Below, piece after piece: positions 36,977 to 50,393 of a stretch of DNA of 64,000 nucleotides (position 1 is its first letter; each line of letters opens with the position of its first letter). This stretch comes from an uncultured Gemmatimonadales bacterium (GTDB lineage Bacteria > Gemmatimonadota > Gemmatimonadetes > Longimicrobiales > RSA9), in assembly GCA_963783305.1 (NCBI GenBank), contig CAWAMW010000015.1:55767-119766 (forward strand), written 5' to 3'. The notes under the pieces are model-generated. The model was given only the letters and a program-made list of their open reading frames with translations. It did no database searches and was not told where the DNA came from. Made by a program: the position numbers and the translations under genes.

Positions 36977-37354
36977 ATGTCCATCCGCACACTCTCGACC
37001 GTTGCTCTGGCACTCGGACTCGCCACGGCCTGTGCCCCCGGCACGGGCGGCCAGGCGCCCTCCCCGTCGGACGGGGTCACGACGATCAGCGTGATCCACG
37101 ATGTCCGTTCGGCGACATCGCTCACGGTCTTCCTCGTCACGCCGACCCGCGCGGAGCGGCGGCTCGGCGTGGTGCGGCCCGGGAGCGTGGAGCGGTTCGA
37201 GTTCACGGACCCGCCGATCTCGGGTCAGTACCGGCTGATCGCTCGCCTGTCCAACGGCCGCACGTACACGTCGCGGGAGTTCATCCTCCTGGGGCGCGAC
37301 GGAGTGGAGTGGAGCCCGGGCGACAACATCGTGTCACCGATCTCGCGGAACTGA
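36977..37354 (+). CDS. hypothetical lipoprotein
   Basis: ATG at 36977 follows GAGGAG. The lipobox is LALGLATACAP. The rest is beta-rich sequence and no family is recognised. Confidence 0.55.
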   Translation: MSIRTLSTVALALGLATACAPGTGGQAPSPSDGVTTISVIHDVRSATSLTVFLVTPTRAERRLGVVRPGSVERFEFTDPPISGQYRLIARLSNGRTYTSREFILLGRDGVEWSPGDNIVSPISRN

Positions 37355-41947: not shown

Positions 41948-42583
41948 ATGGATGAATCGACGCTGGACATCGATGCGCTGGAAGGGCTCGCGAACGTCGA
42001 GCTGGCGCGGGCGCTGGAGGCCACCCTCCAGGCGCTGGAAAAAGACACGGAGATCCTGCTCTTCATGGGCGCCGGGTGCGCGGTCTGTCCGCACCAACTG
42101 CGGTCGCTGGCGACGGTCGCCCTGGCGAGCCCGCGGGTCGTGCTGGACGTGGTGGACGCGGCCAGCGAGCCGGAGCTCGCGGCCCACTACGAGGTGCGGA
42201 GCGTGCCCACCACCGTGGTGGACGACGAGCTGATCATGGTGGGCGTCGTTCCGCCGGACGAGATGGCGCTCCGGCTGGTCGAGCGGCAGGGGCCCGAGCC
42301 GGCGAAACGGGTGTTCGCGGCCCTGGTCGCCTCAGACCGCGTGGCGGACGCCGCCGAGCGGCTGGCGGACGGACGCGGGGCGGAGGCGTTCCTGGAGATG
42401 TGGGCGGCGGCCGACGGCGCGGAACGGATCCGGCTGATGCAGGTCGCGGAGGATTCGCTCCTGTACGATCCGCAGGGGATGGATCCCCTCATGCCACGCC
42501 TCCGGCAGGGATTGGAGAGTGCGGATGAGGATCGGCGCGCCGACACGGCGGAGCTGCTGGAACGGATCGAGGCCGGGGAGTAA
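41948..42583 (+). CDS. thioredoxin-fold CxxC protein with C-terminal helical (HEAT-like) region
   Basis: Internal ATG at 41948. ILLFMGAGCAVCPHQLRSLA..YEVRSVPTTVVDDELIMVG resembles a glutaredoxin/thioredoxin_3-like fold with CAVC. The C-terminal half is alpha-helical and acidic. Confidence 0.6.
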   Translation: MDESTLDIDALEGLANVELARALEATLQALEKDTEILLFMGAGCAVCPHQLRSLATVALASPRVVLDVVDAASEPELAAHYEVRSVPTTVVDDELIMVGVVPPDEMALRLVERQGPEPAKRVFAALVASDRVADAAERLADGRGAEAFLEMWAAADGAERIRLMQVAEDSLLYDPQGMDPLMPRLRQGLESADEDRRADTAELLERIEAGE

Positions 42584-42625: not shown

Positions 42626-43015
42626 TCAGGCGAGCCGGTGGCCGCCGCCGTGCGCGTGCTCGTGACCCGCGCAGGCCGACGCCGGATCCAGCCGCGGCAG
42701 AGATCCGGCGCGGTATGCCTCCAGCGCTCCCGCCACCGTCCACTCCTCCGTCACCAGAACCTGCATTCCCTGCCCTTCCAGGTTCATCAACGCCCGCCGA
42801 CCCAGCCCGCGGCACACCACCACTCCGATCCCTTTTCCTTCCAGGCTCCGCGTCGGAGCGCACTGCCCGTGCTCGTGGCGCGCGTGCTCGTTCTCGATCG
42901 CACTCGTCGCCCCCGTCTCGCTATCCACCACCGTGAACCACGGGGCGCTCCCGAAGTGCGGCGACAGCCGCGCGCTCAACCCAGCCTCACTCACCGTCGG
43001 AATGCACAGCCTCAT
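42626..43015 (-). CDS. NifB/NifX-family (dinitrogenase FeMo-cofactor-binding domain-like) protein with His-rich segments
   Basis: ATG at 43015 follows GAGGAG. MRLCIPTVSEAGLSARLSPHFGSAPWFTVVD..VVVCRGLGRRALMNLEGQGMQV is typical of this domain. His-rich inserts are ENEHARHEHGQC and the C-terminal CAGHEHAHGGGH. Confidence 0.8.
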   Translation of the reverse strand: MRLCIPTVSEAGLSARLSPHFGSAPWFTVVDSETGATSAIENEHARHEHGQCAPTRSLEGKGIGVVVCRGLGRRALMNLEGQGMQVLVTEEWTVAGALEAYRAGSLPRLDPASACAGHEHAHGGGHRLA

Positions 43016-43298
43016 GACCTGCTCCTCTCTCTATGATCAGCGCCTTCGATTCCACCAGCGACCGGATCACCTTCGCCCGACCCGATACCAGCAGCCGCTG
43101 CACCGTCCCGCGCGACACCCCCATGCGCTCCCCCGCACCCTCCTGGTCGTGCCCCTCCAGATCGCACAGGCGCATGGCCTCCAGCTCATCCAGCCCCATG
43201 ACCACGCGCTCCAGCTCCGACATGGGGATGCTGCGGGGCTTGAAGACCGCGTCGCCGTCGAACGCCCGGCAGGTGCGTCGCTTGTGAGGTCGGGGCAT
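42987..43298 (-). CDS. DUF134 (UPF0251) putative DNA-binding protein
   Basis: ATG at 43298 follows ACGGAGAG. MPRPHKRRTCRAFDGDAVFKPRSIPMSELERVVMGLDELEAMRLCDLEGHDQEGAGERMGVSRGTVQRLL is the canonical DUF134 sequence with an HTH. It overlaps the NifX-like start by 29 nt. Confidence 0.8.
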   Translation of the reverse strand: MPRPHKRRTCRAFDGDAVFKPRSIPMSELERVVMGLDELEAMRLCDLEGHDQEGAGERMGVSRGTVQRLLVSGRAKVIRSLVESKALIIERGAGHEAVHSDGE

Positions 43299-43310
43299 GG
43301 CTCTCCGTTT

Positions 43311-43324
43311 TGTGCATATGCACA
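43311..43324. promoter_or_regulatory. AT-rich perfect 14-bp palindrome TGTGCATATGCACA just upstream of the DUF134 gene (candidate operator)
   Basis: Read directly. It lies 13 nt upstream of the DUF134 ATG, next to its SD. Caveat: several 14-bp palindromes are expected by chance in 64 kb, so only position and AT-richness make it notable. Confidence 0.25.
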
Positions 43325-43428
43325 TTACCCGCTCGCGTGCCACACCGCAAGGCCGCGCTGCACGCACACGAAAACGCCGGGGCGGTCCCTCGACCGCCCC
43401 GGCGTCTTCGACTCTCCGCATGCAGCGG

Positions 43429-45432
43429 CTACGACGTGGAGTCCGCCAGCTCCAGGACGGTCCCGGCGAGCATCCGGATCTTGTCCGTATCGCCGGCACC
43501 CGCGGTCTGGTTCTGCAGCCGGACGGCCAGGCCCCGCAGGGTGTTCCGGCGCTGGGCCCCGGAGGCGCCCTCGGCGTTGGCGAGGGCCTGACGCGCCTCC
43601 TGGATGAGGGCGGCGTCCATCCCCGCGCCTCTCTGGAGCTGGTCGAGGTAGGCTCGTGCCAGCGCGAAGGAGGCGGGCCAGACGAACTGTGGCTGAGTTT
43701 GCGCGTTCAGGTAGTCGAGCTTGGCGGTGTTGGCGGCGTCGATCTCGTTCTGGGTGACGAGTCCGTTCGGGGTGAGCTCGAGGATGTCGAGCCCGCGTGC
43801 GATTTCGGAGCTGACGATCGCGCCGTTGTACCAGTACACCGACCAGGGTCCGGCACTGGTGAACCGATTCGGATCGAGCGGCCCGCGGTCGAAGAAAGCG
43901 ATCTCGACGGGGTTGGCGGGATCGGTCCAGTCGAAGACGGAGATGCCGCCCTGGTACCAGGCCTGGACCATGACATTGCGGCCCGGAATGGGGATGAGAG
44001 AGCCGTTGTGGGCGACGCAGTTCTCGAGCTCCGTCTGGGCCGCCGGGAGCTTGTAGTAGCTCTGGAAGACCATCTCGCCATCCTCGATGGTGAAGATCGC
44101 GTTGGCGCCCCATTCGGCGGGGTCCGCGGCGCGGCACTTCGCGGCGCCGCCCCCGCCCCATTCGTCGGTGAACAGGACCTTGCTGCCGTCATTGCTGAAC
44201 GTGGCCGAGTGCCAGTACGCGAAGTTGGAGTCGGCTACGGCGTCGATCCGGACCGGGGCGGTGGGGTTGCTGATGTCCAGCAGCATGCCGTACCCCTCGC
44301 ACGCGCCACCCGCCAGGCCAATGGCCGGATACACCGTAATGTCGTGGCACTGGGTGGGGCCCGTCCGCTCGCGCTCGCCCGAGCCGAACATGGCGGTCAT
44401 CATCGCCGGAAGCGCTTCCCGGAGGGCGGCGCTGTCCGCGGCCGTGGGCGTCTCGACGCCTCGCTCGGCGGCGATGCTGTCGATCACGGGGTCCACGAAG
44501 CGGGACGGCAGCACCCGCTCGGTTCCGCGGATCTCCGCGGTGAACGCCCCGGTCCGCTTGGCCTCGGCCAGATCCGCCTCACGGGCGGCGATGTCCGCGG
44601 GCGTGTCGCCGTGGCGTGGCGGCGCGTCGAGGTCCTCGAAGATGCGCGGCGAGGAGACGATGGCCGCGGCCGCCGGGTTCGCCAGCGGTACCTTGATCAC
44701 CTCGATACGGAACAGGGCCGTGTTCGGGTTCTCATCCGTGAGCCCCGACTCGCACCCCGCCAGCTCCTCCTCGGGCCGGATTCCGGCCGATCCGGAGATG
44801 TAGACGTACACATTCTCGGGGTCATCGGGGTCCACCAGCAGCGAGTGGGTGTGCGAGCCCCGGCAGGTCTGGACGTTGCCGACGTTGACCGGATTGTCGA
44901 GGTCGCTGATGTCGAAGATCCGCAGACCCCGCAGCCGCTCCTCGCTCACCGGATCGGGGACGCCCCCGCCGCCGCAGTCGATCCGGCCGCTGAGCCCTTC
45001 ACCGGAGACGAACAGCAGGTCGCCGTACACCGAGACATCACTCTGCGACGCGGGGCAGAAGTATCCCTGACGCAGGATGGGGTGATCCGGGCGCGAGATA
45101 TCCCATACCTGGAACCCGTTGTAGTTCCCCTGGATGGCGTAATTGCCCGTGAAGGCGAGGTCCGAGTTCGTCACGCCGGCGAACGGCTCCTGTGCCGGTG
45201 TGGCCGACACCAGCCGCATGTTCCAGATGGCCTCACCGGCGTCCGTGACGCCCGCGCGGAGGCCCACCCGAGGATCCGGATTCGGCGCGGCGGCGGCCGT
45301 GATGGGCGTGAGCGTGATGCCGGGCTGTGGCGCGGGCGCCGGCGCTGCCATCGGACCGGAGGCGCAGGCCGAGACCGAGGCCACGCCGAGGGCGAGGGCA
45401 GCGCTACGCAGCGCTGTCGTGATGTGGTTCAT
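43429..45432 (-). CDS. LVIVD-repeat beta-propeller lipoprotein
   Basis: ATG at 45432 follows AAGAGGAAG. The lipobox is VASVSACASG. Recurring strands GFQVWDISRPDHP, LRIFDISDLDNPV, GMLLDISNPTAPV, ISVFDWTDPANPV and GLDILELTP match the LVIVD repeat pattern. The 229-codon extension in the track ORF overlaps the DUF305 gene. Confidence 0.75.
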   Translation of the reverse strand: MNHITTALRSAALALGVASVSACASGPMAAPAPAPQPGITLTPITAAAAPNPDPRVGLRAGVTDAGEAIWNMRLVSATPAQEPFAGVTNSDLAFTGNYAIQGNYNGFQVWDISRPDHPILRQGYFCPASQSDVSVYGDLLFVSGEGLSGRIDCGGGGVPDPVSEERLRGLRIFDISDLDNPVNVGNVQTCRGSHTHSLLVDPDDPENVYVYISGSAGIRPEEELAGCESGLTDENPNTALFRIEVIKVPLANPAAAAIVSSPRIFEDLDAPPRHGDTPADIAAREADLAEAKRTGAFTAEIRGTERVLPSRFVDPVIDSIAAERGVETPTAADSAALREALPAMMTAMFGSGERERTGPTQCHDITVYPAIGLAGGACEGYGMLLDISNPTAPVRIDAVADSNFAYWHSATFSNDGSKVLFTDEWGGGGAAKCRAADPAEWGANAIFTIEDGEMVFQSYYKLPAAQTELENCVAHNGSLIPIPGRNVMVQAWYQGGISVFDWTDPANPVEIAFFDRGPLDPNRFTSAGPWSVYWYNGAIVSSEIARGLDILELTPNGLVTQNEIDAANTAKLDYLNAQTQPQFVWPASFALARAYLDQLQRGAGMDAALIQEARQALANAEGASGAQRRNTLRGLAVRLQNQTAGAGDTDKIRMLAGTVLELADSTS

Positions 45433-45479
45433 TGGGGCTTCCTCTTTGGAGTTGGAGACAACGGTGCTACGGGGCTGTG

Positions 45480-46175
45480 TCAGGATGTGTTCCCTGGTTC
45501 GAATACGAGATCCCGGAGCATGCGCTGCATCCGGTCGATCTCGCTGTTCTGGTCTGCCGCGATATCGGACGCGAGCTTGTATATGGAATCGCTCTGGCCG
45601 GACCCGGGGGTGCCGAACAGCTCCTCCACCATGACCAGCGCCCCCTTGTGGTGCTGGATCATGTAGGTGAGGAAGAGCCGGTCCCACTGGGGGCCGCGGG
45701 CCGCGTCCAGGCGCTCGAGCTGGGGGGGTGTCAGCATGCCCGGCATGCGGCTCGCCCCGTGCGCGCCGTTCCCGTGGCCCATATCTCTCCCGGCCATGGG
45801 CATCCGACCCGACTCGAGGACCTCCGGCGCCGGCTGTCCGTGATCGCGGAGCCAGCGCTGCATGAGCTGGATCTCGTCCCGCTGGCTGTTGAGGATCCGG
45901 CTGGTGAGCGTCAGGAGCTGCGGACTTGCGTCGTGTGTGGGCGCCATGTGCGCCATGACCAGCGCCTGCGCGTGGTGGTGGATCATGCCGCGCATGAACT
46001 CGACGTCGGCCTCGGTGAAGGAGCGCCGCACACTGTCCGCGCGCGCCGCCGCGTCGAGTACTTCGGGGGACGGCTGCGGCGCGCTTGCAGCCGCACTGGG
46101 CCCGCCCGCCGTGCCGCACGCGGCGACGAGCGTCAGCAGACCGCCGACCACGAGGGTGGTGGTGAGATTCCGCAT
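45480..46175 (-). CDS. DUF305 family lipoprotein (CopM-like) with Met/His-rich loop
   Basis: ATG at 46175. The lipobox is LTLVAACGT. Two DUF305 half-motifs are present (FMRGMIHHHAQALVMA and FLTYMIQHHKGALVMV). They are separated by GRMPMAGRDMGHGNGAHGASRMPGM. Confidence 0.85.
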   Translation of the reverse strand: MRNLTTTLVVGGLLTLVAACGTAGGPSAAASAPQPSPEVLDAAARADSVRRSFTEADVEFMRGMIHHHAQALVMAHMAPTHDASPQLLTLTSRILNSQRDEIQLMQRWLRDHGQPAPEVLESGRMPMAGRDMGHGNGAHGASRMPGMLTPPQLERLDAARGPQWDRLFLTYMIQHHKGALVMVEELFGTPGSGQSDSIYKLASDIAADQNSEIDRMQRMLRDLVFEPGNTS

Positions 46176-46302
46176 TCGTATGGGGTTCCGGGGATCGAGG
46201 GTTGGAAACCTACGATGCAATGAACCGGCCGCGCCACCCGCGGGGCTGGTGCTCGTGCGGATCCTCAGCGTAAGCGTCTCTCGCGCCGTGCGGGCGCGAT
46301 GC

Positions 46303-46338
46303 GGTGAGGCCGGCCTGACGAATCAGACCGGCCTCACC
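46303..46338 (-). terminator. candidate stem-loop terminator after the MCP gene (no U-tract)
   Basis: GGTGAGGCCGG (46303..46313), a 14-nt loop, then CCGGCCTCACC (46328..46338), about 40 nt downstream of the 46378 stop. Confidence 0.4.
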
Positions 46339-46377
46339 CCTCCACCTCCCCGAGCCGCCGACGGCCCCCTGGACGGA

Positions 46378-48486
46378 CTAGAACCGCCGCAGCACCTCGT
46401 CCTCCTCGAACGGGATCAACGCGGCCGGCTCCGACGCACCGTGGCCGTTACCCACCGGCCGCACCGACACTTTTGCGCCCCGCTTCCCACCGTTCCCACC
46501 GTTCCCACCGTTCCCACCGTTGCCACCGTTCGGCCGGTGTCGCGCGACGGGTTCACCGCTCGCCAGCCGGAATTGCCCGACGAGGCCCGTCATCCGCTGC
46601 GCCTGCCCGCTCAGCTCCTCCGCGGCGCTGGCGCTCTCTTCCGCGCTGGCCGCCGACCGCTGGGTCACGGCGTTCATCTCCTCGACCGCGTTGTTGATCT
46701 GACCGACGCCTTCGGTCTGCTGCTCGCTCGCGGCGGCGATCTCGGCCATGACTTCCGTCACCCGCGCCACGCCCTTCTGGATCTCGTCCAGCTGCGAAAC
46801 GACCTCGGCCTGGACCACCACGCCCTCCTCGGAGCGCTCCACGCTCTGCTCGATGAGCCGCGACGTCTCCTTGGCCGCCTCGGCCGACCGCATGGCCAGG
46901 TTCCGGACCTCTTCCGCCACCACCGCGAACCCCTTCCCCGCCTCACCCGCTCGCGCCGCTTCCACCGCAGCGTTCAGCGCCAGCAGGTTGGTCTGGAACG
47001 CGATCTCGTCGATGGTCTTCACGATCCGCGCTGTGGCGTCGCTCGACTCCTTGATCCGGTTCACCGTGAGCGACAGGCGCTGCATTGCCTCGGCACCCTT
47101 CTCCGTGCTGTTCGACGCCGCCTGTGAGAGGCCCCGCGCCTCGTTGGCGTTGCCGGAGTTCTGGGTGGCCATGGACGCCAACTCCTGCAGCGAGCTCGAG
47201 ATCTCCTCCAGGCTCGACGCCTGCTCGCTCGCGCCCTCCGCCAGGTTCTGGCTGCCGCCTGCGATCTCGTCCGACGCGCTCGAGACCTGCTCGCTCGCGG
47301 CGGACACCTCGCCCAGCGCCTCCTGGAGGTTGTCCACGGCCTGGTTCAGCGAACGCTTGATCTTGAGGTAATCACCACGATAGTCGCCCTTCATCCGGGC
47401 GGTCAGGTCGCGCTCCGCCAGCGCCTCCAGCGTGCTCGACGCCTCATCGAGCGGCGTGACCACGGCCTCCAGCAGACCGTTCAGCCCCGCCACCATTTCG
47501 CCGTACGCCCCCTCGATACCCGTCCCGTCCGCGCGCTTCGACAGGTCGCCGTTGCCCGCCGCCTTCACCAGCTCCCGCGCCTCGCCCACCACGCGCTTCA
47601 GCACCTGCTGCGCTTCCTCGAACCGACGCGCTGTGCCCCCCGTGCTCTCGATGATGCCGTCCACCGCCCGCGCCAGCGAGCCGATCTCCTCCGTCAGGTC
47701 GAGCTCCAGCGGCTCCGTGCCATAATCGACCCGGTTCTCCAGGTCGCCCCGCACGATGGCCGCGGCGCCCGCGCCCAGGTTCGTAATGTCCCGCTGCTGG
47801 AGCGCCTGCACCCGCTCCACCACGAGCTGGATCCGCCGGGTCACCCACCCCGAGATGAACAGTGCGATCCCGGCGGCGATCAGTATGCCCAGGACCAGGA
47901 TCCCGATCATGATGGCGCGGATCCGAAGATAGAGCGCGGTGTTAGCCTCGGCCATCTGCTTCGCGCCCTCCAGCCGCGCTTCCGCAATGGCGTCTAGCGC
48001 CGCCGAGTACACGTCACCAGTACGACCTGCCTCGCCGAGCATCAGCGCGATCGCCTCCTCCCGGCGCTCCTGGCGCACCAGGTCCGCCACTTCGCGGGCG
48101 GGGGCGAGGTACGCCTGGCGCGCCTCCAGCAGGTCGCCGAACAGCGCCCGATCCCTATCCGTGCTGAGGGTCGCCTCGTACTGGTCCTGGAACGCGGAGG
48201 CCCGCTCGGAGAGCGCTGTCAGCTCCTGGGAGTAGGCCGCCCGCTGAGCCGAATCCTCCGCGAGGGCGAGGTCGCGCAGCACCACGCGGTAGCCCTCCAA
48301 CGTGACGTTCCACTCACCTACCAGGCCCAGTCGAACGGTCTCGTCCTCGTAGAGCGCGGTGTCCGCCGAGCCCAGCGTCCGCAGGCTCCAGATCGTCAAC
48401 GTCCCCGTGAGGACCAGGAGGCCCGTGACCAGACCGAAGCCCGAGAGGAGCTTGGCCCGCAATGACAGATTGTCGAACGACTTCAT
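46378..48486 (-). CDS. methyl-accepting chemotaxis protein (4HB-type sensor, HAMP, MA domain)
   Basis: ATG at 48486 follows GGAGGG. After an N-terminal TM and a four-helix-bundle periplasmic region comes a second TM. The conserved signalling hairpin is [40 protein letters not shown]. The C-terminal tail has NGGNGGNGGNGGNGG and ends ..EEDEVLRRF. Confidence 0.9.
46484..46528. repeat. 9-bp tandem repeat x5 (TTCCCACCG; last copy TTGCCACCG) encoding (GGN)n in the MCP tail
   Basis: Copies at 46484, 46493, 46502, 46511 and 46520, read directly. Confidence 0.9.
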
Positions 48487-48600
48487 GATACTCGTCCCTC
48501 CCCGTTCCGATTCGTGCCCCGGAAGCTCCGGGACTACGTGCTGGAGTTTCCAGAGAGGTTCGGCAGAGGGTCCCGAAGCTTTAACGTGCGGGGAGCGTGG

Positions 48601-49362
48601 TCAGGGGAGCTGCGCCACGGGCGCCAGGCCGAGGGTCTGCAGCGCGACGACCACGACGACGAGGACCGCCACCGTGATCCCCACCCTCCCCCAGATCCGA
48701 CGCCGCGACATCCCGGCGAGTCCTGCCCCGATCACCGCGCCCGCGAGCCCCAGCTCCAGTCCCTGCCCCACCCACCAGCCCACCAGGAGGTCCACGGGCG
48801 CCGTGGTGATCGACCACAAGCCCAGCAGGAGAGCGCCCCAGGCCGTCAGTCCGGCCGCCAGCCCCATGCGGAAGCCAGGGAGCGCTCCCCGGATCCCCGT
48901 GCAATGGAGCAGCCAGTAGAGGCCGGCGGTCAGGAGAAGGAACGACAGGTAGCCCGCGGGGATTCGGCGGAAGGCGGTCGCGGGGTCGAGCAGGAAGGGG
49001 CTGTTTCGCGTGTAGAACTCCGCCAGCACGCCCGCGTGAAGGAACAGGTCCACACCCAGCGTCAAGACCCACGCGGCCAGGATCAGCGATCCATCCCTCC
49101 GCCGGCCACCCTCCCGCGTCGCCGGTGGAGAGCCGCGGTCCTCCATCGCGCTCACCGGCGCGCTGGATCGGTCGGGATCCGACCGGTGGTGGAGCTGACC
49201 GTGAGGAGCAGCGCGACCAGCGTCGACAGAACGCTCGCCACCAGCGGGACCCAGCCAGCTCCCGCCGTGCCAGCGATCCAGAGGCTCGTCCAGCGCCAGC
49301 AGCACGAACACGGCACTTACCCACCGGGGCAGCCACACCAGCGCCTCATCGTAGAGCTCCAC
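48601..49362 (-). CDS. hypothetical polytopic membrane protein
   Basis: The C-terminal 180 aa have 5-6 TM helices (LILAAWVLTLGVDLFLHAGV.., ..ITVAVLVVVVVALQTLG). The GTG at 49362 is preceded by AAAGGGGA. An alternative ATG at 49146 would drop a low-complexity N-terminal part. No family is recognised. Confidence 0.45.
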   Translation of the reverse strand: MELYDEALVWLPRWVSAVFVLLALDEPLDRWHGGSWLGPAGGERSVDAGRAAPHGQLHHRSDPDRSSAPVSAMEDRGSPPATREGGRRRDGSLILAAWVLTLGVDLFLHAGVLAEFYTRNSPFLLDPATAFRRIPAGYLSFLLLTAGLYWLLHCTGIRGALPGFRMGLAAGLTAWGALLLGLWSITTAPVDLLVGWWVGQGLELGLAGAVIGAGLAGMSRRRIWGRVGITVAVLVVVVVALQTLGLAPVAQLP

Positions 49363-49571
49363 GATCCCCCTTTATTCCGGTATCACCAGCGAATAGTACG
49401 CCCAGTGATACCACCGCGAACAGGATCGAGCTTTAGCCGTAGACTCCGTCGGGCGAGCGTCGTGGGGTGGGCAGGTGCGACGCGGTCGCCGTGGGCTGAC
49501 CGCTATCCGGCGAACGCCGGAGCGCCCTCATCACCGCGCCCCGGCGTCTTCTCGCGGACCCTCGGGCCTCG

Positions 49572-50132
49572 TTACTTCGGCCTGGGCGAGGTCGGGATCA
49601 TGACGTGGGCGTAGGGCGTGCCCTTCCACATGACGAACGGGCCGCCGTTGTCGGGATCCGTGGGTATCCCCTCGAGCATGGCGGGGTCGGAGAACACCAC
49701 CATGATGTGCGGCCCACCGGACTGGATCCACTGGTTGTCGGGGGTGGGCCCCGTGGCGAACGGGTCCGTGTTGCTGACCGGCATGTCGCCCTGGAGCATG
49801 TAGCTGAAGCCGGTCCCGGAGAACACCGGGTCGCGTCGGTTCATGAGCGCGTCCATGACCTCGCGCCAGTTGCTGTCGAGGCACATGGGGGCGTTCCCCG
49901 GCATGTCCTGCATGTCGGGCATGCAGACCCAGTCGCTGGTGCCCTCCCGGAGGATGGTCCCGTCGGCCAGCGCGACGGTGGCGTGCTCCGCCACTTCGGG
50001 GGGCGCCGCGCTGAGGGCGCTCTGGATCTGCTCATCGGGCGTGCGTGTGTCCTGCGCCTGGGCCTCGGCCGGGGCGCGGCTCACGGCGAAAACCGCCACG
50101 AGCGCGAACGTGAGAAGGGTGGAGAGTCGCAT
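49572..50132 (-). CDS. secreted hypothetical protein with Cys/Met-rich motif
   Basis: ATG at 50132 lies 4 nt after AAGGAG. The signal peptide is MRLSTLLTFALVAVFAVSRAPAEAQA. The motif is DWVCMPDMQDMPGNAPMCLDSNW. No family is recognised. Confidence 0.6.
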   Translation of the reverse strand: MRLSTLLTFALVAVFAVSRAPAEAQAQDTRTPDEQIQSALSAAPPEVAEHATVALADGTILREGTSDWVCMPDMQDMPGNAPMCLDSNWREVMDALMNRRDPVFSGTGFSYMLQGDMPVSNTDPFATGPTPDNQWIQSGGPHIMVVFSDPAMLEGIPTDPDNGGPFVMWKGTPYAHVMIPTSPRPK

Positions 50133-50302
50133 GGGGCTCCTTCGCATGGGGGGCTGGCCGGAGTCGTTCCGCCAGTGATCGGCAGGATCGGCCGCCGCCG
50201 TCCTCACCGGGATCCGATCCGGAATGCGTCTGGGGGGATGATTCCGGGGGAATGACCTAGGTACCCCCGGACGGCGGAGAAGTCAATCAGCGCGTACAGC
50301 GT

Positions 50303-50335
50303 CCCGGGGACGGCCCGGGGACGGCCCGGGGACGG
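50303..50335. repeat. 11-bp perfect tandem repeat x3 (CCCGGGGACGG) plus a degenerate 4th copy, in a divergent intergenic region
   Basis: Copies at 50303..50313, 50314..50324 and 50325..50335, then CCCGGGCGTCGG. They lie between the divergent starts at 50132 (-) and 50469 (+). Confidence 0.9.
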
Positions 50336-50393
50336 CCCGGGCGTCGGTCCGGCGCGGCGGCCGGAGGGGATGCGAGCCGTCCGCAAGCGCTTC

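Follow-up and report, generated by a model that had tools for sequence, protein, structure and literature searches.

Some secreted metalloenzymes are encoded beside a small metal-binding helper, as in MelC1-MelC2 tyrosinase, NosL-NosZ, and SCO1/MauG with methanethiol oxidase (MTO); among these enzymes, NosZ and MTO are His-lined β-propellers. CopM, a periplasmic, secreted copper-binding protein, acts by copper binding and export (PMC4335983). Domains of the Nitro_FeMo-Co family, to which NifX-like proteins belong, bind Fe-S, thioferrate or Mo-Cu-S species outside nitrogen fixation (PMC6345978; PMC5524996), and the Di-Nase domain of MrpORP binds Fe-S clusters (PMC6345978). Here we analyze a 64,000-nucleotide (nt) stretch of DNA from an uncultured Gemmatimonadales bacterium (assembly GCA_963783305.1, contig CAWAMW010000015.1, positions 55,767 to 119,766), hereafter the window, in which seven consecutive minus-strand genes encode a secreted protein (g1), a polytopic membrane protein (g2), a methyl-accepting chemotaxis protein (MCP), a DUF305 lipoprotein, an LVIVD β-propeller lipoprotein, a DUF134 helix-turn-helix (HTH) protein and a NifX-like protein, with a gene for a thioredoxin-fold CxxC protein (Thioredoxin_3) convergent on the last. 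An earlier note on this DNA had proposed that these genes form a single metal-handling module. We find that the seven genes are a genome-specific juxtaposition of separate units and not one system, and that the region is very probably a mosaic in which DUF305-LVIVD and DUF134-NifX-like are the only conserved functional pairs.

Results

Gene neighborhoods and transcription unit boundaries

We scanned one genome per GTDB species, confirmed at least 595 LVIVD homologues and examined 80 LVIVD-centered loci with flanks of up to 10 kb, against which every window protein was searched with tblastn. DUF305 was found in 76 of the 80 loci, and g1, g2, the MCP sensor, DUF134, the NifX-like protein and Thioredoxin_3 were found in none; the neighborhood-conservation check that the earlier note had proposed across related genomes thus returned only DUF305 as a companion of LVIVD. 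All-against-all clustering of the flanking open reading frames (ORFs) gave, apart from DUF305, no family in more than 9 of the 80 loci, and the 10 recurrent families that we annotated are generic for Gemmatimonadota (kinases, β-lactamases, MacB and the like). We also collected about 40 further loci around homologues of the NifX-like protein, including many short or duplicate contigs, with gene content taken from pre-called genes, and neither DUF305 nor LVIVD ever appeared in these. In the closest relative found, whose ribonucleotide reductase (RNR), LVIVD and DUF305 proteins are 93%, 81% and 77% identical to those of the window, the gene order is Exo_endo_phos … RNR - DUF305 - LVIVD - PAS kinase; this locus lacks g1, g2, the MCP and Bor on one side and DUF134, the NifX-like gene and Thioredoxin_3 on the other. 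A second relative likewise has the DUF305-LVIVD pair alone. The earlier note had tied its module to the co-location of these genes in related genomes, and by that standard of its own the single seven-gene module falls, at the 80 LVIVD loci as in the closest relative.

Folding of the spacers placed boundaries between the units. The LVIVD gene is followed by a hairpin of -51.4 kcal/mol (z = -7.6) with a U-tract, and the MCP gene by a hairpin with z = -4.5 (0 of 200 shuffles equally stable) that has none; the 3' side of g1 shows a weaker, moderate hairpin and a 425-nt gap, and g2 ends 114 nt upstream of the MCP gene. The 47-nt spacer between DUF305 and LVIVD is unstructured and contains a Shine-Dalgarno sequence. 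The shared direction of the genes had been taken as a sign of one cluster, a reading that the strong hairpins after the MCP and LVIVD genes speak against.

Because nothing but DUF305 co-occurs with LVIVD in the 80 loci, because the closest relative has the pair without the other genes, and because hairpins stand between the units, we read the region as a mosaic in which four or more transcription units (g1; g2 with the MCP gene; DUF305-LVIVD; DUF134-NifX-like) are independent of one another, with Thioredoxin_3 convergent. Together with the roles proposed below for the two pairs, this is the explanation that we favor, and we hold the whole of it to be probable. We conclude that the seven genes only look like a "metal island" because of where they happen to lie.

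The DUF305-LVIVD pair

The pairing of DUF305 with LVIVD is near obligatory. DUF305 lies directly upstream of LVIVD on the same strand in 75-76 of the 80 loci, at a median distance estimated at 55 nt, and the exceptions are contigs that end upstream of LVIVD. Two actinomycete records carry a divergent DUF305/propeller pair, namely a plasmid of Streptomyces sp. NBC_00184 (L126, 4980-7311) and Nonomuraea gerenzanensis (L127), the latter an 11.85-Mb "plasmid I" in PLSDB that is most likely the chromosome. Both actinomycete propellers retain all the His/Asp motifs of the window protein but have neither its helical insert nor its helical domain at the C terminus; the Streptomyces propeller is 495 residues long. 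In the window, both members of the pair have lipoprotein signal peptides, with a VAAC lipobox on DUF305 and a VSAC lipobox on LVIVD. A literature search found no work treating DUF305 together with LVIVD.

The DUF305 protein matched PF03713 with 143.2 bits (cutoff 27) over all 151 of the 151 profile positions, has both half-domain motifs (MIHHHAQA and MIQHHKGA), and aligned along both halves with the CopM structure 5FEJ in the PDB (E 2.8e-12). Its two HH-containing halves are separated by a linker of 26-113 residues whose Met/His composition is conserved in 73 orthologues; the linker contains three or more Met in 70 of the 73 and up to 19, and usually ends in MPGML. Inspection by eye of the DNA 5' of 69 DUF305 genes revealed no palindromic operator. 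A TACTATCG-like (TAnTAT) element does lie 10-45 nt upstream of several DUF305 starts (L008, L010, L021, L024, L031, L045 and L047) and may be a -10-type promoter element of Gemmatimonadota.

The LVIVD protein scored 35.5 bits with PF08309 (cutoff 20.2) and 59 bits with the choice-of-anchor B model TIGR04312, short of its cutoff of 100. More than 8,000 proteins matched it, the best 120 listed being 65-81% identical, and the family comprised 1,240 clusters (50% identity) at E ≤ 1e-30, drawn from Gemmatimonadota, Rhodothermota, Balneolota, Bacteroidota and Actinomycetota. In all 93 homologues that we aligned, tandem paralogues included, D91, D132, E145, D152, H194, H196, H363, D364, H408, D423, E424, H475, N476 and eight Cys are invariant, and N89 is kept in 90 of the 93; the total of invariant polar residues was recorded as five His, six Asp/Glu and eight Cys, the residues just listed naming seven Asp/Glu. 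Two or three tandem LVIVD paralogues stand beside DUF305 in 11 of the 80 loci (L022, L026, L028, L038, L040, L048, L059, L062, L076, L077 and L083); they are about 57-66% identical to the window protein and all keep the invariant His, Asp, Glu and Cys.

An AlphaFold model of the LVIVD protein (predicted local distance difference test score, pLDDT, 79) has seven four-stranded blades, a helical insert and a C-terminal helical domain, and places the invariant residues at the starts of the first (inner) strands of successive blades. The starts of these strands are where propeller enzymes build the active sites of their central channels. The top PDB match of the model in Foldseek was Sb-PTE, the phosphotriesterase or haloalkylphosphorus hydrolase of Sphingobium sp. 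TCM1 (5HRM, E 1.7e-12, probability 1.00, template modeling score 0.57 normalized to the target, about 12% identity), with the next match at about 1e-8. At the sequence level, HMMER found Sb-PTE and no other family (E 0.002-0.0075). A474-H475 of the LVIVD protein aligns with S474-H475 of the Sb-PTE structure 5IOJ, and this is the one His aligned; in Sb-PTE we take H475 to be a metal ligand.

The DUF134-NifX-like pair

The DUF134 protein matched PF02001 with 65.3 bits (cutoff 27), resembles region 4 of sigma-70 and has the conserved N-terminal motif PRPRKxRxCRxFxGDxVFKPRSIPM; its score with the NCBIfam equivalog PRK04217 was 68 bits, under the cutoff of 115. The intergenic DNA at 43299..43428, which the earlier note had named for DUF134 binding, holds a highly conserved candidate operator: the perfect palindrome TGTGCATATGCACA at 43324-43311 (minus strand), 12 nt before the DUF134 ATG. 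It overlaps the -10 element of a predicted promoter (-35 TTGCGG at 43350-43345, a 17-nt spacer, and -10 TAATGT at 43327-43322). The palindrome recurs in essentially every related locus, 23-47 nt upstream of the DUF134 or NifX-like gene in about 20 independent loci, and where DUF134 is not adjacent it lies directly 5' of the NifX-like gene (L099, L102, L107, L115 and L117/118). In L119, a second copy is found about 275 nt upstream of a CGGC-domain gene. As control DNA, 1.26 Mb of LVIVD loci gave 0 matches. Within the window, a search for a second copy with up to three mismatches returned only a chance-level match at 36978; the operator is thus single-copy in the window, and therefore the other genes here are not under its control.

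Distant DUF134 loci have symmetric variants of the operator (GAGCATATGCTC, GGACATATGTCC, GAGCATTCGCTC and GAGCATAGGCTC), and the recognition helix changes with the half-site: SRGTVQR occurs with GTGCA, and SRxTFxR with GAGCA or GGACA. Because of this covariation, we take DUF134 to be the protein that binds the palindrome, and it is probably an operator-binding autoregulator. A literature search for DUF134/UPF0251/COG1342 found neither a function nor an operator, and a search with the operator sequence likewise gave nothing relevant.

A second NifX-like locus (L117/L118, 5969-5980; L118 comes from the sample that also yielded the source contig) lacks an adjacent DUF134 gene, yet this operator stands immediately 5' of its NifX-like gene; the locus is flanked by genes for ArsP_2, DUF1847, CGGC, VKOR and hemerythrin proteins. 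These surroundings suggest that a DUF134 regulon may span several loci, with thiols or metalloids as its theme.

The translational overlap of DUF134 with the NifX-like gene that the earlier note had described is indeed present, measures 29 nt and recurs in relatives. In 17 of 32 non-source loci, the gene immediately upstream of the NifX-like gene is DUF134; two more have DUF134 about 120-250 nt upstream, and in L116, L119, L123 and L125 it is again immediately upstream. The NifX-like protein itself scored 74.9 bits with PF02579 (cutoff 26.3). In its subfamily, H20, H47, C52, C68 and C115 are invariant and C4 is nearly so; the HFG motif H20-F21-G22-S23 is invariant, and a His-rich C-terminal tail of variable length is near-universal. 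Because of the four conserved Cys, the two conserved His and this tail, we suggest from sequence that the product of this probably autoregulated operon binds metal-sulfur species. Its closest solved structures are TM1816 (E 3e-20), TM1290, PH0822, MTH1175 and the Mo-Cu orange protein (ORP).

Elsewhere, recurrent neighbors of the NifX-like gene are Cys-rich or thiol-related (CGGC, DUF1847, VKOR, ArsP_2, a Cys/Met pyridoxal phosphate enzyme and a ParA/Mrp-like ATPase), and others are efflux systems and an Nramp transporter. A Thioredoxin_3 orthologue, 65% identical, occupies the same convergent position in an independent Gemmatimonadota metagenome-assembled genome (MAG; L125), and Thioredoxin_3 is absent from the other NifX-like loci among the 32; it is possibly a lineage-specific partner of the DUF134 operon. 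We rejected the idea that the NifX-like gene belongs to a nif or ORP setting: no nif genes were found among the window genes examined or the annotated genes of the relatives' loci, no Mrp/MinD ATPase or ferredoxin-type Orp genes are present at this locus, and the NCBIfam MrpORP model scored 28 bits against a cutoff of 450, with only its Di-Nase part matching.

Layout of the region and remaining genes

All seven ORFs were present on the minus strand of the source and the thioredoxin ORF on the plus strand, and the peptides WVC-MPDMQDMPGNAPM-C, GRMPMAGRDMGHGNGAHGASRMPGM, ENEHARHEHGQC, CAGHEHAHGGGH and GCAVCP were all found in translated ORFs (Table 1). Domains were called from Pfam profile matches above the gathering score, and NCBIfam models were scored against their own cutoffs. 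On this basis, the earlier calls of 4HB-MCP, DUF305, LVIVD, DUF134, NifX/Nitro_FeMo-Co and thioredoxin domains all held (MCPsignal 147 bits, 4HB_MCP_1 82 and HAMP_2 61 for the MCP; PF13192 47 bits for the Thioredoxin_3 ORF), and g1 and g2 matched no family, as the note had said of g2. The classical copper-resistance genes that the note had reported missing (P-type/P1B-ATPase, multicopper oxidase, CopC/D and CusCBA) were also missing in our scan of the cluster genes and 18 other large ORFs of the window. Genes for housekeeping functions flank the region, among them those for an M1 peptidase, a Bor lipoprotein and a class II RNR.

Table 1. Positions of genes and signals in the region, numbered from the first letter of the window
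Feature	Position	Strand	Family or basis
g1, Sec-secreted protein, 186 aa	49572-50132	-	no Pfam or NCBIfam family
g2, polytopic membrane protein, ~181 aa	48601-49146	-	no Pfam or NCBIfam family; start set by G+C content at third codon positions (GC3)
MCP with 4HB sensor, HAMP domains and signaling domain	46378-48486	-	Pfam
16-bp G+C-rich hairpin 3' of the MCP stop codon	46303-46338	-	repeat I2; terminator-like boundary
DUF305 / CopM-like lipoprotein	45480-46175	-	PF03713
LVIVD β-propeller lipoprotein, 667 aa	43429-45432	-	PF08309
Intrinsic terminator 3' of the LVIVD gene	43360-43410	-	repeat I1; 19-bp stem, then UUUUCGUGUG
Predicted promoter and candidate operator of the DUF134 operon	43311-43350	-	sequence
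DUF134 HTH protein, 103 aa	42987-43298	-	PF02001; ATG at 43298
NifX/MTH1175-family (Nitro_FeMo-Co) protein, 129 aa	42626-43015	-	PF02579; 29-nt overlap with DUF134
Thioredoxin_3 CxxC protein, convergent on the NifX-like gene	41948-42583	+	PF13192; start codon uncertain (41771 or 41948)

The g1 family has 2,242 homologues, which are secreted proteins of about 180 residues from Gemmatimonadota and Rhodothermales, have no Pfam domain and occur in unrelated gene contexts. The consensus of the C70..C84 loop is C-M-P-D-M-P-D-V-P-N-N-S-P-M-C, in which Pro, Asp, Asn and Cys are conserved and the inner Met is not; judged from this alignment, the "Met-rich" loop is a Pro-rich disulfide loop, and we rejected g1 as a Met-motif copper protein. 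Metal-type features are thus conserved in the DUF305 linker, the LVIVD His/Asp/Glu and the NifX-like Cys/His, whereas the Met motif of g1 is not conserved; the Met/His loop check that the earlier note had proposed upheld the composition of the DUF305 linker only. The AlphaFold model of g1 (pLDDT 85) found no fold match in the PDB (best E 0.96). Some g1-family members have two tandem domain copies (A3 family members noted: P0264 and P0320). In the g1-Bor intergenic DNA, about three copies of the 11-mer cccgggccgtc lie at 50300-50345, about 160-210 nt upstream of the g1 start; they surfaced in the inverted-repeat scan as the overlapping palindromes I5, I9, I17 and I18.

For g2, the 5' third of a 253-residue ORF is probably noncoding, as GC3 reaches the coding level only from about 49180, with the start near 49146. 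The sole g2 match outside the source contig among about 125 fetched loci was weak and partial (36% over 74 residues, E 9e-5) and lies 2 kb from the Streptomyces pair on the opposite strand. The MCP sensor region was not beside LVIVD or NifX-like genes in the loci examined, and the closest relative has no MCP between RNR and DUF305; we rejected the MCP as a dedicated metal chemoreceptor for want of conserved linkage. Toward the C terminus of the MCP (46440-46500), a hexanucleotide tandem repeat encodes a Gly/Asn linker, (GGN)5, that comes just ahead of the C-terminal tail. A frameshift at about codon 347 splits the MCP gene in a nearly identical contig from another assembly (L001, 5568-5572).

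Discussion

We propose that the LVIVD propeller is an extracytoplasmic (periplasmic) metalloenzyme with a His-lined center and that the CopM-like DUF305 protein encoded upstream, with its Met/His linker, would serve as its dedicated metal chaperone. The metal delivered would most likely be copper; alternatively, DUF305 may guard the propeller against mis-metallation. We infer a metalloenzyme with a dedicated metallochaperone because of the near-obligatory pairing, the invariant His, Asp and Glu residues, the fold match to Sb-PTE and the CopM-like Met/His linker, and we give this proposal an even chance. As to the metal, the Met-rich chaperone suggests Cu, and the analogy with Sb-PTE suggests Mn or Zn.

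Two other explanations of this pair have to be weighed. In the first, LVIVD is an Sb-PTE-like Mn, Zn or Fe hydrolase, and DUF305 has no part in delivering copper but is a ferritin-like accessory protein or redox partner that might, for instance, provide or buffer some other metal. Sb-PTE is the best match in both structure and sequence, with His475 aligned; a DUF305 four-helix bundle with HH motifs could bind other metals, and no copper genes lie nearby. However, identity to Sb-PTE is only about 12%, and a Met-rich linker of conserved composition, as in DUF305, is characteristic of Cu(I)/Ag(I) sites rather than of sites for Mn, Zn or Fe. We regard this explanation as unlikely. Slightly less likely still is a noncatalytic copper-tolerance pair, in which DUF305 sequesters Cu(I) and the propeller is a surface scaffold or a second metal sponge. 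The CopM homology and the Met/His linker agree with it, as do the mode of action of CopM (PMC4335983) and the usual description of LVIVD proteins as cell-surface proteins (PMC2447325). Against it, the recurrent neighbors annotated for the pair include no copper efflux, sensor or oxidase genes, the closest fold to the propeller is that of an enzyme, and 65-81% identity over 667 residues across phyla, together with the invariant polar residues, suits a precise active site better than a sponge.

For the second pair, a DUF134 HTH dimer would bind TGTGCATATGCACA over the -10 box of its own promoter and repress both itself and the translationally coupled NifX-like gene. The NifX-like protein would hold an inorganic metal-sulfur species through its Cys4/His residues and may be the ligand-sensing partner of DUF134. 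It is improbable that DUF134-NifX-like instead belongs to, or is left over from, an Fe-S maturation complex of the ORP/Mrp type and that some other regulator binds the palindrome. In some relatives, a ParA/Mrp-like ATPase, a CGGC-domain protein or DUF1847 does come next, and the MrpORP Di-Nase domain binds Fe-S clusters (PMC6345978), but the locus has neither an Mrp/MinD ATPase nor ferredoxin-type Orp genes, the MrpORP score is far under its cutoff, the clear DUF134 HTH has a recognition helix that covaries with the operator, and the operator overlaps the operon's own -10 box. As for one uncharacterized periplasmic metal-handling module of all seven genes and the thioredoxin gene, with a dedicated chemoreceptor and regulator, the genes are adjacent and co-directional and several products have Met-, His- or Cys-rich features, but the absence of co-occurrence beyond DUF305-LVIVD at LVIVD and NifX-like loci, the gene content of the closest relative, the terminator hairpins, the operator unique to the DUF134 promoter and the unconserved Met motif of g1 leave it highly implausible.

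Several observations weigh against our account of the mosaic and its two pairs. The hairpins after the g1 and MCP genes have no U-tracts, and read-through transcription is possible there. The DUF305 protein scored 89.0 bits with the NCBIfam CopM model, under the cutoff of 90, and no known copper gene was found near the DUF305-LVIVD pair among the 10 annotated recurrent neighbor families of the 80 loci or the window ORFs scanned. The gathering of the invariant His, Asp and Glu at the propeller center, which the model suggests, is deduced only from strand-start positions. The metal signals conflict: the metal of Sb-PTE is Mn, and a Met-rich linker is a pointer to Cu(I). Finally, with no DUF134 gene near L117/118, the palindrome might be bound by a different regulator.

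A combined proposal goes further: that LVIVD lipoproteins are an unrecognized class of extracytoplasmic propeller metalloenzymes loaded by a co-encoded DUF305 chaperone and that, at the same time, DUF134 is a dimeric repressor on TGTGCATATGCACA that responds to the metal-sulfur load of the NifX-like protein. In this joint form we put it forward tentatively, as doubtful. If it is true, DUF305 proteins would generally be dedicated enzyme metallochaperones rather than copper sponges.

Almost nothing is known of the functions of DUF305, LVIVD and DUF134, all of them large families. The DUF305-LVIVD pairing, which several phyla share and which held in practically all loci where it could be tested, gives two uncharacterized domains an enzyme-plus-metallochaperone hypothesis, and culturable hosts with the pair or close homologues are at hand (Roseisolibacter agri, Fodinibius halophilus, Rubrivirga and Streptomyces; our Gemmatimonas aurantiaca locus comes from a MAG). 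The conserved palindrome offers a route to the DUF134 regulon and to the signal sensed through NifX-like proteins outside nitrogen fixation. Recognizing the juxtaposition, moreover, prevents a misleading annotation as a seven-gene module. As far as the searchable literature shows, neither conserved pair has been described before.

Comparison with known systems

The closest parallels to the proposed role of the DUF305-LVIVD pair, MelC1-MelC2 tyrosinase, NosL-NosZ and SCO1/MauG with MTO, have no sequence relationship to it, and the analogy is functional only. With CopM (Synechocystis sll0788), the DUF305 protein shares the DUF305 fold signature, the two HH half-domains, secretion and a Met/His-rich composition. 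Unlike CopM, it is a lipoprotein. The linkage to copper sensing and efflux seen with cyanobacterial CopM (copRS, copBAC, ATPases) is not found here either: the gene is unlinked to copRS, copBAC or any copper gene and is paired instead with an LVIVD propeller. For that propeller, the best structural match is Sb-PTE (5HRM, 5IOJ), a seven-bladed propeller with a binuclear Mn center; the two have in common the LVIVD-like blade motif GG(I/V)xxxDxxDPxxP and a His at an equivalent blade start, and they differ in that the LVIVD protein has a 90-residue helical insert, a C-terminal helical domain, eight invariant Cys and a DUF305 partner.

The NifX-like protein has the same domain as the MTH1175/TM1816/IssA/ORP group (IPR003731), in which TM1816 also has a His-rich C terminus. 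Unlike that group, the subfamily described here has four conserved Cys together with H20 and H47, occurs in Gemmatimonadota, and is coupled to DUF134 under a specific operator, with no nif, orp or Mrp ATPase gene at the locus. The DUF134 protein agrees with the predicted DNA-binding proteins of DUF134/UPF0251 (COG1342) in its Pfam family, its sigma-70 region 4-like HTH and its linkage to COG1433 NifX-like genes. What sets it apart from these proteins as they are known is that a precise candidate operator has been identified here, the palindrome TGTGCATATGCACA; judging by the searchable literature, none had been proposed for DUF134 before.

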